DNA from: Clostridiaceae bacterium
GTDB taxonomy: Bacteria > Bacillota > Clostridia > SK-Y3
DNA: 64,000 bases
Reading direction: 5' to 3'
Assembly: GCA_012735465.1 (NCBI GenBank)
Contig: JAAYHJ010000016.1
Coordinates: forward strand, 16,648 to 80,647
The notes beneath the pieces were generated by a model. That model worked only from the letters and a program-made list of their open reading frames with translations, had not been told where the DNA came from and searched no databases. The position numbers and the translations under genes are program-made. Shown one piece after another: positions 20,203-50,178 of this stretch. Each line of letters begins with the position of its first letter. The stretch's first letter is position 1.

Positions 20203-20466
20203 TTATCGCCCTGATATGTACATGACTACAAGGGCAATATCCACAACAAAAAAACCCGCTGCAACAATCCAGGAAAGAAGGCGGATAATATAGGCCGGAA
20301 CCCGTTTCAGTTTCTTAAGATATTGCAGGAATAAAAACAAACCCATAAAAATTATACCCAACCCGTATGGATTATATGGGTTTATTGCCATGCTGCTAAA
20401 GCCTCCTATGAAGCATAAAGCAGACAGCACAAACATACCATACCCATATGAACTAATATTTTTCAT
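20203..20466 (-). CDS. Small hypothetical membrane protein (3 TM)
   Basis: Hydrophobic 87-102 aa ORF. Start MKNISSYGYG has RBS AAGGGTG. Confidence 0.45.
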   Translation of the reverse strand: MKNISSYGYGMFVLSALCFIGGFSSMAINPYNPYGLGIIFMGLFLFLQYLKKLKRVPAYIIRLLSWIVAAGFFVVDIALVVMYISGR

Positions 20467-20558
20467 TATTAACACCCTTACGCCTTTACTTTCACATAAA
20501 TTATACACCAATATAAAATTTTTTCAAGTGAAAGCAATAAACCCAGGTACATTGCAAA

Positions 20559-20592
20559 GGTCCTACTGCCCGCTGAAGCGGGCAGTAGGACC
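20559..20592 (-). terminator. 15-bp perfect GC-rich hairpin closing the agr-like operon
   Basis: ggtcctactgcccgc-tgaa-gcgggcagtaggacc, 19 nt after the orf77 stop. The trailing T-run is weak (TTTG). Confidence 0.6.
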
Positions 20593-20610
20593 TCTGTAGT
20601 TGTGTTCCTC

Positions 20611-20844
20611 TTAGGCTTGGTGATATATTCTGAGAATAATACCTTCTTCTATTTCAAACTGTACCATTCCATTTTTCTCCAAAATTTTGTCCTCCACAGA
20701 TGTCCATATAGGCGGTACACCTATTCCCAGCTCATCGCATATGCTAACATATGCAATGAAAAAGCCTTTTCTGTCATTATACATCAGTTTAGCTGTTTTA
20801 GTTATTGTTCCCTCCTGAATGATTTCTCCTACTAGCGTTTTCAT
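20611..20844 (-). CDS. Hypothetical 77-aa soluble protein translationally coupled to agrB
   Basis: ATG 20842-20844 overlaps the agrB TGA 20841-20843 (ATGA). RBS GAAGGAG lies 6 nt upstream. Product MKTLVGEIIQEGTITKTAKLMYNDRKGFFIAYVSICDELGIGVPP... I recognise no family. Confidence 0.6.
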   Translation of the reverse strand: MKTLVGEIIQEGTITKTAKLMYNDRKGFFIAYVSICDELGIGVPPIWTSVEDKILEKNGMVQFEIEEGIILRIYHQA

Positions 20845-21410
20845 GCGCATCTCCTTCTATTAGCTAACTTTCCCAGAAAAAGAGTTAATGCTTCTATAAA
20901 TATTGCTATCACTGCTGTACCGGAGTATATATCAGGCAATAGAAAACTCATGGCTCCCATAACACATATAGCAGCCACCGAAAAATACTTTAAACGTAAT
21001 CTTCTGGACTGGCTGATAATAGGTTTATTTGGATGGTCCACTGGTGCAAATACTACCGCCAGAATAATTGATAGCAAAATGATGTATACTTTTACATTTA
21101 CTGGGAATGTATAACTTTTCCCCATTATAATAATTATTGTAAAAATAAGTAAAGTTGTAAAAAAACAGCGCCAGTACGTCTTTGAATGGTATCCTCCTGC
21201 TATTATGCGAAGCGTGCAAAAGAATATTGCTGCAACAAGAAAATAATCCAGTACCTTGAAAACTGAAAATAGGAAAACATATATTAGCATTTTTGTAATC
21301 TCACCTATAAGACATTCCAATCCATATTTAATTGTTCTGACTTGCAAATCTGTTAATTCTGTATTTTCACGCTGAATGGCATTGGTGATCTTCCTCGCTA
21401 ACTTTTCCAT
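20841..21410 (-). CDS. agrB: Accessory gene regulator B (AgrB) family peptide-processing membrane protease
   Basis: 189 aa, polytopic. It carries the conserved RIIAGGYHSKTYWRC His/Cys pair and the APVDHPNKPI motif (compare S. aureus APAATKKKPI). Confidence 0.88.
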   Translation of the reverse strand: MEKLARKITNAIQRENTELTDLQVRTIKYGLECLIGEITKMLIYVFLFSVFKVLDYFLVAAIFFCTLRIIAGGYHSKTYWRCFFTTLLIFTIIIIMGKSYTFPVNVKVYIILLSIILAVVFAPVDHPNKPIISQSRRLRLKYFSVAAICVMGAMSFLLPDIYSGTAVIAIFIEALTLFLGKLANRRRCA

Positions 21411-22746
21411 TATTATTCTTCCTTACATTAAATGTTATTAAAAACTCTGTTTCTTCTTCTGAACTAAATACGGAAATATTACCATTATTCTGCTGAACAA
21501 ATTTTTTAACAATATATAGTCCATATCCACGGTCTTTCTTATCATCTACATCCTTTGTGGAAAAACCGCTTTCAAATATTTTTTCCCTTATTTCATGAGG
21601 TATCATAGGACCGTTATCAGAAATAGATAAATAAAATTTGTCGTTTTCAATATAGGTGCAAAGAGATACCACTTTTCCGCTTTTTTCCGGAACGGAAAGG
21701 AAGGATTCAAAAGCATTGTCTAAAATATTTCCCACAATACTTGTCAAGTGGCTGTTATTTACATCCGCTTGGCTAAAAGGTGCTTCTATATCAACTTCCA
21801 GGTAAATATCATTTTCAAAGGCAAAATTATTTTTTACTGCCAGCAGCCCATCTATGTAAACATTTCCCGAATTAAAACACCGTACCGACGACTTCAGATT
21901 ATTAGTTAACTGCCTAATATATAATTCCATTTTCTCCAGGGCATCCGGTTTCTTCAACATGCAAATCGCAAGAAGTGTATTTAAATGATTTGTGAAATCG
22001 TGCTTTTCCCTTCTTATTATTTCAACAATAGTTTCCATGTTCTTTACATACTCTTGCTGCTCGTCCATTTTATATTTAAGCTTTAACATATTTTCCCTTT
22101 CATTGAGGTCAATAAAACATAATATAACGTACAGCAAATATATGATGAATAATAAAATATTGTAATGGGTGACATTTTTCTGCTGCGATACAACATAATT
22201 AACGCTTGCCATAAATACGGACATCATAAAAACCTGCATAATGACAAAGGAAAATGCGGATTTACCCTCATTTATTTCATTATGAATTTTAATACTAACA
22301 TTAAAACGGTAAAGTAAAATAGCCAAACCGGACTGAGCTATCTTACAACAAAGGGCATGAACAAATTTATTATTCGGTACCGCTAACAGTTCAGACATAT
22401 TGGTATTTAATAAGGTCATCCCAATAACCAAGATAATTGATTCGGTCACTATCAGAGTAACTCCAATGACAATCACAGTAATGGTTGAAGAATAAAAGCT
22501 GGATTTGGTAATAAAACTCAACACTATAATCATGAAAGCAGCTATACAAAGGGTATGAAATATGGGAGAAATATAGTTGGTAGCCCAATAAGTAAAAAAG
22601 GTATACAATAATATAAATACTATTGATTTAAATCTATTTTGTCTAATAAATTGTTTTATATTATTTAAACATGTAAAATAAACAAGTACAATAATTGATT
22701 CCCAAAAATCAAATAGTATTTCACGGGCAAAACTTATATTCCCCAT
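21367..22746 (-). CDS. AgrC-like (HPK10 family) sensor histidine kinase
   Basis: 459 aa with about 6 N-terminal TM helices, H-box IIRREKHDFTNHLNTL and a GHKL ATPase region (NILDNAFES...DNGPMIP...GFSTK...GYGLYIV). Overlaps agrB by 44 nt. Confidence 0.85.
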   Translation of the reverse strand: MGNISFAREILFDFWESIIVLVYFTCLNNIKQFIRQNRFKSIVFILLYTFFTYWATNYISPIFHTLCIAAFMIIVLSFITKSSFYSSTITVIVIGVTLIVTESIILVIGMTLLNTNMSELLAVPNNKFVHALCCKIAQSGLAILLYRFNVSIKIHNEINEGKSAFSFVIMQVFMMSVFMASVNYVVSQQKNVTHYNILLFIIYLLYVILCFIDLNERENMLKLKYKMDEQQEYVKNMETIVEIIRREKHDFTNHLNTLLAICMLKKPDALEKMELYIRQLTNNLKSSVRCFNSGNVYIDGLLAVKNNFAFENDIYLEVDIEAPFSQADVNNSHLTSIVGNILDNAFESFLSVPEKSGKVVSLCTYIENDKFYLSISDNGPMIPHEIREKIFESGFSTKDVDDKKDRGYGLYIVKKFVQQNNGNISVFSSEEETEFLITFNVRKNNNGKVSEEDHQCHSA

Positions 22747-22776
22747 ATTTAAAACCCCTTTTTAATTAATTATAAT

Positions 22777-22803
22777 AAAAAGGATGCAATATGCATCCTT
22801 TTT
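22777..22803 (-). terminator. Intercistronic hairpin/partial terminator between agrD and the kinase gene
   Basis: aaaaaggatgca-ata-tgcatccttttt: a 7-bp core stem extended by A/T runs. It overlaps the agrD stop codon. Confidence 0.5.
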
Positions 22804-22945
22804 ATTTGAGAAGTTCTTTAGGGCATTCCGGCTGATAGGAAGTGAAGAAAGAAGTAATCTGTACACCTCCTACTGCTACTGCAAGTGCCAGAGCTCCTAA
22901 AATGGATAAGGAGTACTTTCTTAAAAAGGATACGATATTTTTCAT
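22802..22945 (-). CDS. agrD: AgrD-type cyclic autoinducing-peptide precursor (47 aa), absent from the ORF track
   Basis: My translation is MKNIVSFLRKYSLSILGALALAVAVGGVQITSFFTSYQPECPKELLK. RBS GGAGGAGGG lies 7 nt upstream. The YQPECPKELL tail matches the AgrD (Y/H)(E/Q)PxxPxEL recognition motif. Confidence 0.7.
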   Translation of the reverse strand: MKNIVSFLRKYSLSILGALALAVAVGGVQITSFFTSYQPECPKELLK

Positions 22946-22976
22946 AAAAAACCCTCCTCCTTTGTTGGTTTATCTA

Positions 22977-22985
22977 ATTATACCA
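22977..22985 (-). promoter_or_regulatory. Extended -10 element (TGGTATAAT) upstream of agrD
   Basis: Minus strand TGTGGTATAAT, 32 nt upstream of the agrD ATG. No good -35 element. Confidence 0.45.
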
Positions 22986-23048
22986 CAAAGGAAAGGCAAT
23001 ATTTTGTAAAATTTTGTATGTAGTGTAAAAAAATTTTCTCCTAATTTT

Positions 23049-48121: not shown

Positions 48122-48216
48122 GGAGAGATGGCTGAGCTGGTCTAAGGCGCACGACTGGAAATCGTGTGTACCTGCTAAAACGGGTACCGAGGGTTCGAAT
48201 CCCTCTCTCTCCGCCA
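48122..48216 (+). tRNA. tRNA-Ser (anticodon GGA), CCA-encoded
   Basis: Acceptor stem GGAGAGA/TCTCTCC, anticodon loop CTGGAAA, long variable arm, T-arm GAGGGTTCGAATCCCTC, discriminator G plus CCA. Confidence 0.92.
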
Positions 48217-49503: not shown

Positions 49504-50178
49504 TTATGCAACAAGAAGATACTTTTTCTTCTGTTTAGCAGTTAGAGTTAATCCAGCTACTTGAGCAGGTGTTAAACCATTAAGAGATGAATGGGGTCTA
49601 ACAAAGTTATAAAAGAATAAGAACATGCTGATTAGGTTATTTGCTGATTCAAAAGAGTTGAAACCTTGCTTTGTCTTATACCAAGCTTTAAATTGATGAT
49701 GGAAAGACTCTATAAGATTGTTAGAAATATCATCTTTAAAGCTTTCAACACGAATGTGTTTAATGTTATTGCCTAAAACAGTTTTAACAGGAACCTTATA
49801 AGCACTGTAACGGTCACTGACAATAGCAACAGGTTGGCCTAAGCTTTTAACAGAATTAAGTAAAGAAAAAACCTGCTCTGAATCTCTATGTGGTGAAAGA
49901 TGAAATCCTAAGACAAAGCGAGTCTCTGAGTCCATAATGAACCATATATAATATTTTTTACCAGAGATTTTTACAGTAGTTTCATCAGCGTGCCATTCAT
50001 CAGAATCAAAATTTAACATTGTCATAAGTTCCAATACAATATTATTAAAATAAGGAGCAAATTGGTGCTTACACTTATGGCAAAGATATTTTTGGAAACC
50101 ATCTTTATCTTTGCCATAGCGATAAAAAGAATGCTCATTATTGCATTTTGGACATTTAACTGGTACAATTTTTTGCAT
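49504..50178 (-). CDS. IS6-family DDE transposase with N-terminal zinc-finger
   Basis: 224 aa: CPKCNN...CHKCKHQF, then WHADETTVKISGKKYYIWFIMD, IVSDRYSAY and NNLIESFHHQFKAWYKTKQGFNSFESA. Compare IS26 HMDETYVKVNGRWAYLYRAVD / NTDKAPAY / NNVIECDHGKLKR. Confidence 0.85.
   Translation of the reverse strand: MQKIVPVKCPKCNNEHSFYRYGKDKDGFQKYLCHKCKHQFAPYFNNIVLELMTMLNFDSDEWHADETTVKISGKKYYIWFIMDSETRFVLGFHLSPHRDSEQVFSLLNSVKSLGQPVAIVSDRYSAYKVPVKTVLGNNIKHIRVESFKDDISNNLIESFHHQFKAWYKTKQGFNSFESANNLISMFLFFYNFVRPHSSLNGLTPAQVAGLTLTAKQKKKYLLVA

Follow-up and report, generated by a model that had tools for sequence, protein, structure and literature searches.

Organization of the locus

The stretch analyzed here, 64,000 nucleotides of contig JAAYHJ010000016.1 from a Clostridiaceae bacterium (assembly GCA_012735465.1, positions 16,648 to 80,647; hereafter the window), contains an agr-type peptide-signaling locus that has no gene for the response regulator AgrA. 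Four genes on the minus strand make up the module: agrD, for the precursor of an autoinducing peptide (AIP), a gene for an AgrC-like sensor kinase, agrB, and a small open reading frame (ORF), orf77 (Table 1). A first-pass annotation of the same DNA had described these co-directional genes, an extended -10 sequence in front of them and a GC-rich hairpin behind them, and all were found at the positions given there. So were the two overlaps: the kinase gene and agrB share 44 nt (21367-21410), and orf77 starts on the agrB stop codon, the ATG and the TGA having the 4 nt ATGA in common.

The annotation had also reported that no response regulator is encoded anywhere in the window. A phmmer search of ORFs of at least 60 aa with CheY, Spo0F, AgrA, PhoB, and NarL as seeds found no receiver domain in the window, the best match having E = 0.03; the same five seeds detected regulators down to E = 1e-53 in control loci. 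Since the operon terminates within the window at the hairpin and is followed by unrelated genes, no regulator gene can belong to it, including a LytTR gene just outside the window, a case that the annotation had raised. An Rfam scan of the window found neither an RNAIII-like nor any other RNA close to the locus; its sole match was a single tRNA gene (48122-48213, plus strand).

Table 1. Features of the agr-type module in the window. L numbers here and in the text denote individual related loci.
Feature	Position	Strand	Description
agrD-like ORF	22802-22945	minus	47 codons
AgrC-like kinase gene	21367-22746	minus	459 aa
agrB	20841-21410	minus	189 aa
orf77	20611-20844	minus	77 aa
Predicted AIP ring	22838..22852	minus	agrD codons S32-F-F-T-S36
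Extended -10	22985-22977	minus	TGGTATAAT; sequence inspection; conserved in relatives
Conserved upstream element of agrD	23001..23020	minus	CATACAAAAT-TTTACAAAAT; alignment with L006, L008-L011
Hairpin after agrD	22775..22805	minus	AAAAAGGATGCA-TAT-TGCATCCTTTTT; intrinsic-terminator-like
Operon-end hairpin	20559..20592	minus	15-bp GC-rich stem, 4-nt TTCA loop

The peptide precursor, its processing enzyme, and the kinase

The annotation had ascribed AgrD hallmarks to an unlisted ORF, and the product of this ORF indeed scores above the TIGR04223 cutoff (38.4 bits against 19; E = 9e-10). By this match and by alignment it has the parts of an AgrD: a leader, a charged follower, and, five residues ahead of the predicted cleavage site, a ring Ser/Cys. 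Sixty related AgrDs align with it and have in common the follower peptide [HYQ]QP[EK]CP[KDE]ELLK. Five residues ahead of the conserved [HYQ]Q, the alignment shows S, C, or T, and from this position the ring is predicted to span S32 to S36. Cleavage would then occur before Y37, and the AIP would be a five-residue serine lactone, SFFTS. In Clostridium thermocellum, a lactone pentapeptide without an N-terminal extension, S...F|Y, has been proven experimentally (PMC5322536). The AIP of Ruminiclostridium cellulolyticum also has no extension, and it controls endospore formation (PMC8251862). The follower (AgrD residues 37-47, window 22802-22834) has a nearly invariant Cys within QP[EK]CP, present in 59 of 61 aligned sequences, which is unusual as compared to staphylococcal AgrD.

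The product of agrB, a membrane cysteine peptidase/cyclase, was placed by the annotation in the AgrB family, and it matches PF04647 with E = 5e-39 (134 bits against a cutoff of 23). G72, G73, H75, and C82 (H-x6-C) are invariant across 60 family sequences, and the catalytic His/Cys pair is intact in the window protein.

The kinase has about 6-7 hydrophobic, probably transmembrane (TM), segments in residues 1-214, and matches the Pfam domains SPOB_a, HATPase_c, and HATPase_c_5 (37.6 bits for the last). The phospho-accepting residue is assigned from the sequence to His249, within EKHDFTNH, in a SPOB_a-type dimerization and histidine phosphotransfer (DHp) domain. The HPK10/AgrC label that the protein had received holds in part. 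The kinase is collinear with Staphylococcus aureus AgrC, whose structure (PDB 6e52) aligns with the DHp domain together with the catalytic and ATP-binding (CA) domain at E = 1e-10; among the PDB matches listed, it is the sole one whose alignment reaches back into the DHp domain. However, the match to the staphylococcal AgrC model of NCBIfam, although end-to-end, is weak (45 bits against a 500-bit cutoff), and the catalytic core scores higher against DcuS/CitA-type models. AgrC-like thus seems the better term than strict HPK10 member. A look-up of the exact kinase sequence gave no record. A second, paralogous AgrC-like kinase gene directly follows orf77 at L008:12181-13629 and L009:12143-13600, and two AgrC-like kinases are in tandem at L072:10001-12735.

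Promoter region and hairpins

The extended -10 sequence of the window is kept as TGnTATAAT at the same position in an alignment with L006 and L008-L011. No good -35 sequence was found in the window at 17-bp spacing from it. The conserved element further upstream is a tandem repeat of ACAAAAT with a 10-bp period; at the site of this element the relatives have a Spo0A-box-like ATCGACA followed by TTNTACA.

The hairpin after agrD, which is missing from the first-pass annotation, begins within the agrD stop codon and is followed by a T run (-16.2 kcal/mol, z = -5.1 vs shuffles). Hairpins of -13 kcal/mol or stronger directly follow agrD in 41 of 65 related loci, including L006, L008-L016, and L018-L024. 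The window hairpin probably acts as a leaky attenuator, governing how much agrD transcript is made relative to transcript of the genes beyond it. Abundant short agrD transcripts, as expected from a leaky terminator, would be a reason for the precursor gene to come first. The operon-end hairpin has a folding energy of -39.5 kcal/mol (z = -8.9 vs shuffles) and is followed by just three T residues. The extended -10 and both hairpins were assessed by folding and direct reading, a scan for consensus promoters and terminators having missed all three.

Between the operon-end hairpin and birA is a small two-TM ORF of at most 102 aa (20203-20511, minus strand), with its own near-consensus promoter, TTGAAA-16-TATAAT (20527-20500). 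Elsewhere in the window, a 224-aa ORF (49504-50178, minus strand) has a Cys-rich, zinc-finger-like N-terminus and may be an insertion sequence-related transposase.

A conserved architecture without a regulator

A profile of the kinase family finds 455 places in GTDB species genomes. For 80 of these, six-frame ORFs from the locus and its 10-kb flanks were searched by phmmer and hidden Markov models (HMMs). The order agrD-kinase-agrB, with or without orf77, is present in 57 of the 80 loci, in other Clostridia of many genera. The three-gene module is seen at 30 loci (plus two that are truncated), and the four-gene module, which includes orf77, at 22 (plus three that are cut upstream). The remaining arrangements are agrD-kinase-orf77 (two loci), agrD-kinase (eight), kinase-agrB (one), and the kinase alone (12). 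The hosts include Petroclostridium, Geosporobacter, Lutispora, Anaerophilus, and Ruminiclostridium, and many members of Clostridium sensu stricto, among them C. ljungdahlii, C. ragsdalei, C. drakei, and C. tyrobutyricum. The kinase homologues of C. ljungdahlii, C. ragsdalei, and C. drakei (L046, L048, L049, L060, L082) were retrieved with the kinase profile at 36-38% identity and E = 1e-81 to 1e-91 (to 1e-90 for those of C. ljungdahlii, L048, L060, and L082, which span the same range of identity).

The regulator is missing throughout. No response regulator gene was found less than 2.5 kb from any agrD-kinase-agrB(-orf77) module in the 80 loci, and no LytTR regulator within 10 kb in any of them. 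The window layout is a conserved clostridial architecture and not a strain-specific rearrangement, the possibility against which the annotation had weighed its proposal of an orphan or rewired module with an unspecified output partner. The orphan part of that proposal is borne out. The word rewired overstates the novelty, because the regulator-less, precursor-first layout is widespread and is already known, the same arrangement having been published for C. autoethanogenum (PMC8748961).

The GC content of the module (20559-22985) is 33.3% as compared to 39.2% for the window, and the flanking genes vary among module-bearing genomes. The lower GC content and the variable flanks would fit a cassette that is mobile or was inserted independently. 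Several of the loci have further peculiarities. In Geosporobacter, agrD-kinase-orf77 modules without agrB are found at L022:9766-11653 and L023:9715-11585, and a full agrD-kinase-agrB-orf77 locus (L019) is present in G. subterraneus as well, a co-occurrence similar to that of "System 1" and "System 2" in C. autoethanogenum (described below). A TPR-looking protein of about 115-130 aa (MSYFD.AN.LYN..EY.KAI..YKKAIE...) is encoded convergently beside the module in eight Clostridium loci, just downstream and on the opposite strand (L026, L032, L045, L061, L069, L070, L073, L076). L088 (1-622; 3093-4457) has a second agrB and a 44-aa ORF about 5 kb upstream of its kinase-agrB-orf77 module, and this second agrB adjoins genes for a phage-type integrase and helix-turn-helix proteins.

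The orf77 family

The annotation had taken orf77 for an extra, tightly coupled component, and both its ATGA overlap with agrB and its distribution agree with this. An initial search found orf77 itself, as the identical copy P0001 on a 2.8-kb contig, and one orthologue, 71% identical, on ENA metagenome contigs, one of which is labelled biogas fermenter; the orthologue also has a 4-nt overlap with the ORF upstream of it. A profile was then built from the homologues in the fetched loci. With it, 32 proteins were found among 5.8 billion, the exhaustive HMMER search giving 32 clusters among 1.84 billion representative proteins. The matches listed are of 65-99 aa each, save one of 805 aa, and the homologues for which an annotation is shown are all hypothetical, with uninformative names and no Pfam domain. 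The 805-aa protein (P0149) has 10 short matches to positions 46-68 of the profile, which may be a repeat or low-complexity artefact. In every copy with examinable surroundings, including the divergent copies L086-L089, orf77 is directly 3' of the module, and this linkage holds although the flanking genes vary among genomes. The dN/dS ratio (nonsynonymous to synonymous substitution rates) against the orthologue is 0.16, indicating purifying selection.

An AlphaFold2 model from the 32-sequence alignment has a ββααββ two-layer fold (pLDDT, the predicted local distance difference test score, 91.8). The invariant residues are F28, V33, P45, W47, and T48, with the motif P-[ILV]-W-T, and T48-x-x-E51 resembles a helix N-capping box. 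Counting residues gives a net charge of about -3, and this acidic protein is predicted to be cytoplasmic. Foldseek found nothing below E = 0.9 for this fold in the PDB and just uncharacterized phage proteins in BFVD (E >= 4e-3). A sequence-profile search of the PDB gave no match, and a search of Pfam and PHROGs with all 32 members gave just scattered chance-level matches. orf77 appears to represent a protein family that is undescribed in the searched literature and exclusively linked to these modules.

Several more familiar identities were tried and rejected. A Spo0E-family phosphatase is excluded by the absence of a Pfam or NCBIfam match, a negative result with the Spo0E HMM, the absence of the SQELD motif, and a ββααββ fold in place of a helical hairpin. 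Nor is orf77 a simple replacement for Spo0E, as L013, L017, L020, and L047 carry both genes. A CheY-like receiver does not fit a protein of 77 residues with a ββααββ rather than a (βα)5 fold, no invariant Asp, and negative seed searches. A role as phospho-acceptor was discarded as well, no Asp or His being conserved and T48 and E51 looking like an N-cap.

Association with the sporulation pathway

Genes of the Spo0E type cluster at the modules. Four Spo0E-like ORFs found behind agrB served to build an HMM, which identifies 26 such genes in the 80 loci; 23 of the 26 are less than 1 kb away from the module, shortly before agrD or shortly after agrB. With a target fraction of 22%, the binomial probability of such clustering is about 6e-13. 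Genes of this kind (SQELD-type) near the module are seen at L013, L017, L020, L033, L036, L038, L040, L042, L044, L047, L048, L051, L052, L058, L059, L062, L068, L077, L079, L081, and L082.

The agrD promoters carry signals of the same pathway. In 11 of 66 upstream regions, the sequence TCGAC[AG] is present in forward orientation between -65 and -80 relative to the agrD ATG, the mean for shuffles being 0.5 and the maximum 3. It is the core of the reverse complement of the 0A box, consensus TGTCGAA (PMC3485338). The 11 loci, in which it reads TTCGACA or ATCGACA, are L006, L008, L009, L011, L012, L028, L029, L034, L035, L043, and L055, and all of them carry orf77. A sigma-H motif, R-N-AGGAWWW-N10-13-R-N-N-GAAT, is found in 23 of the 66 regions, against 0.2 in shuffles, and all 23 are from loci without orf77. 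AGGA/GAAT is the sigma-H signature (PMC12456013). In Clostridium sensu stricto loci, agrD is preceded at a distance of 60-105 nt by promoters of the sigma-H type, for example GCAGGAAAA-N11-GTAGAAT (L033, L036, L038, L040, L041, L044, L046, L048, L049, L051-L054, L059, L062, L064, L066, L068, L075, L077, L079, L081, L083). The agrD promoter of the window has neither the exact 0A core nor the sigma-H motif. At the level of the family, these sequence associations suggest that the module is coupled to the initiation of sporulation.

Output of the module and the role of orf77

On balance, the locus is probably an agr-type AIP cassette of the clostridial agrD-agrC-agrB class without agrA, with its output elsewhere and coupling to Spo0A favored. 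The predicted extended -10 promoter would drive transcription of agrD. At the hairpin after agrD, most transcripts would probably end, and read-through would supply the kinase, agrB, and orf77. AgrB would remove YQPECPKELLK and close the serine-lactone ring, which would leave the cell and be detected by the 6-7-TM domain of the kinase. Autophosphorylation of the kinase on His249 and signaling to a regulator encoded elsewhere would follow, with coupling to the Spo0A sporulation-initiation switch favored, and orf77 would act with the kinase as a small, acidic, protein-binding accessory.

The association with a phosphatase family specific for Spo0A~P, together with the absence of a linked regulator at any module, suggests direct phosphotransfer from the kinase to Spo0A; we hold this tentatively, as clearly short of an even chance. 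That the output goes instead to an unlinked regulator, of the LytTR or another type, falls only somewhat below even. In the most complete version of the Spo0A scheme, Spo0A would stand in for AgrA: the AIP would act on the kinase, the kinase would phosphorylate Spo0A directly, and Spo0A~P would act at 0A boxes at agrD, with the Spo0E-like proteins as a brake and orf77 as a connector or modulator. The chain as a whole is rather unlikely to be right in every part. If Spo0A does replace AgrA, the result would be an AgrA-less autoinduction loop that gates sporulation by cell density.

Several observations weigh against coupling to Spo0A, and against direct transfer in particular. The link is drawn from relatives, the window itself having neither the box core nor a Spo0E gene. 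The Spo0E HMM finds no Spo0E-like ORF in the window, and orf77 fills the slot after agrB. The window promoter also lacks the CG core of the 0A box, with CATACA where the relatives have TCGACA: because CATACAAAATTTTACAAAAT replaces the ATCGACAAAATTCTACAAAG of the closest relatives at the homologous site, the CG that Spo0A contacts is missing. Moreover, 0A boxes and sigma-H promoters would also be expected if Spo0A merely controls agrD and receives no input from the kinase. The DHp domain of the kinase is of the AgrC/SPOB_a type, and KinB (PDB 3d36) aligns with it in the CA domain alone. The known Spo0A kinases have a HisKA-type DHp domain, unlike the kinase here, and AgrC-type kinases normally pair with LytTR regulators.

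This pairing is the starting point of the strongest alternative, that the kinase acts on an unlinked LytTR-type regulator similar to AgrA, VirR, or RgaR, and that the links to Spo0A and sigma-H mean merely that the module is turned on as cells pass into stationary phase. The collinearity with S. aureus AgrC over the DHp and CA domains and the H-box HDFxNH argue for it, as does the automated JGI annotation of one family member (P0050) as "LytTR family sensor histidine kinase AgrC". There are also precedents for non-contiguous genes: VirS/VirR and agrBD of C. perfringens (PMC7492741), and RgaS/RgaR of C. difficile (PMC10602386, PMC11210211). However, no LytTR gene is found within 10 kb in any of the 80 loci, and no conserved 9-bp direct repeats with 12-nt spacing, which autoinduction would need, were seen upstream of agrD. 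The tight clustering with genes for Spo0E-like phosphatases is also left unexplained. We regard this alternative as plausible, with the balance tipped against it.

As to orf77, the most likely partner of this presumed small, acidic, protein-binding accessory is the kinase, and a part in peptide maturation is less likely. Where agrB is absent, in Geosporobacter L022 and L023, orf77 directly follows the kinase gene. Pairwise distances of orf77 correlate with those of the kinase domains when AgrB is controlled for (partial r 0.43-0.53), the corresponding value for AgrB with the kinase controlled being just 0.11 and that for the peptide core about 0. The mirror-tree signal for kinase and orf77 is nevertheless weak and confounded by shared phylogeny, and the translational coupling of orf77 to agrB by the 4-nt overlap in most close relatives would fit a partner of AgrB too. 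orf77 might accordingly be a maturation accessory that binds AgrB or the cleaved follower and promotes lactone formation. The ATGA overlap, present in the window and in L006, L008, L009, L011, L037, L047, L055, and L080, would lead to stoichiometric co-translation; just this family shows strong conservation of the follower, its unusual invariant Cys included; and in L022 and L023 orf77 is still beside an agrD gene. But these same two loci have kept orf77 without agrB, about half of the agrD-kinase-agrB loci do without orf77, and the partial correlation with AgrB is low. A function in maturation is thus unlikely, and action with the kinase remains the preferred reading.

It is improbable that the cyclic peptide is primarily a growth-modulating or stress peptide, and not a quorum signal, with the kinase as a self-sensing or immunity-like receptor. 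The synthetic lactone pentapeptide of C. thermocellum reduced the rate of growth, and xylose stress, not cell density, induced its gene (PMC5322536). However, that agrD stands alone with no kinase or AgrB gene nearby, whereas here a receptor kinase is conserved beside every agrD, and agr mutants of other clostridia show regulatory phenotypes (PMC8748961, PMC8102284). Finally, decay of a canonical agrBDCA locus that lost agrA by rearrangement would agree with the absence of a regulator from 64 kb and with a module GC content (33%) below the window average (39%), as in acquired DNA, but is effectively refuted by conservation: the four frames are intact, the catalytic residues of AgrB are invariant, orf77 is under purifying selection (dN/dS 0.16), and 57 of 80 loci, from many genera, have this gene order.

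Significance

Apart from orf77, the window is an ordinary member of the published architecture. In the searched literature there appears to be no description of the orf77 family, of the size of the module family, or of the numerical link between the modules and Spo0E-like genes, 0A boxes, and sigma-H promoters. According to a 2024 review, it is an open question how clostridia, having no Bacillus phosphorelay, time the phosphorylation of Spo0A, and the route by which AgrD1 promotes C. difficile sporulation is likewise called not known there (PMC11210211). The regulator-less agr modules form a large family (the 455 places in GTDB genomes), found beside Spo0E-like genes and with Spo0A-box or sigma-H promoters. 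This offers a concrete, testable hypothesis, namely, that a peptide-sensing kinase feeds the sporulation switch directly. The orf77 family, confined to these modules, is a candidate for a missing signaling or maturation component.

Comparison with known systems

The agrBDCA locus of S. aureus resembles the window in the H-x6-C pair of AgrB, in an AgrD with a leader, a five-residue ring, and an acidic follower, and in a polytopic kinase that is collinear over the DHp and CA domains. The gene order is B-D-C-A in S. aureus but D-C-B in the window. The AgrA LytTR gene that a canonical agr operon contains is absent from the 64 kb and does not adjoin any of the 80 related loci. S. aureus has RNAIII in addition to AgrA, and the window has neither. 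The ring residue is Cys in S. aureus and Ser in the window, so that the window product would be a lactone. The window has in addition the terminator-like hairpin after agrD and orf77.

A polytopic sporulation kinase with a small accessory protein has a functional analogue in kinB-kapB of B. subtilis, where the kinase is co-transcribed with a small downstream protein required for signaling. No similarity in sequence or fold was detected between KapB and orf77, the Foldseek search of the PDB having given no match better than E = 0.9, and KapB is not known to go with a peptide signal.

In C. perfringens, agrBD and VirS/VirR are unlinked (PMC7492741), so that the peptide and regulator genes are at separate loci, as would be the case for the window. 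In C. difficile, agr1 (agrB1D1) and RgaS/RgaR are non-contiguous, the regulator again being encoded elsewhere (PMC10602386, PMC11210211). In these systems, agr has an influence on sporulation. In both of these split systems, however, the kinase gene is also unlinked from agrBD, whereas the window kinase gene sits between agrD and agrB. Compared by its description, the agr3 locus of C. difficile phage phiCDHM1 has agrD, agrB, and agrC without agrA, like the window (PMC3901668). It differs in being phage-borne and in gene order and small-gene content.

The closest parallel is in C. autoethanogenum, where "System 1" consists of agrD1-agrC1-agrB1 (CLAU_0816 to CLAU_0814) without agrA, an arrangement also seen in other acetogens, and "System 2" of agrD2-agrC2 alone (Piatek et al., 2022; PMC8748961). 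System 1 has the window order of precursor, kinase, and AgrB on one strand, without agrA; the kinases are of a homologous family, by the matches in C. ljungdahlii and other acetogens, and its AgrD is of the same type, with a P-x-x-P follower and a five-residue ring. The promoters differ: the sampled Clostridium sensu stricto, including C. ljungdahlii (L048), have sigma-H-type agrD promoters, whereas the clade of the window has an extended -10 and a 0A-box-like element. In both systems a small gene follows agrB. That of C. autoethanogenum is Spo0E-like, whereas the window has in this place orf77, which lacks SQELD and encodes an unrelated ββααββ protein.

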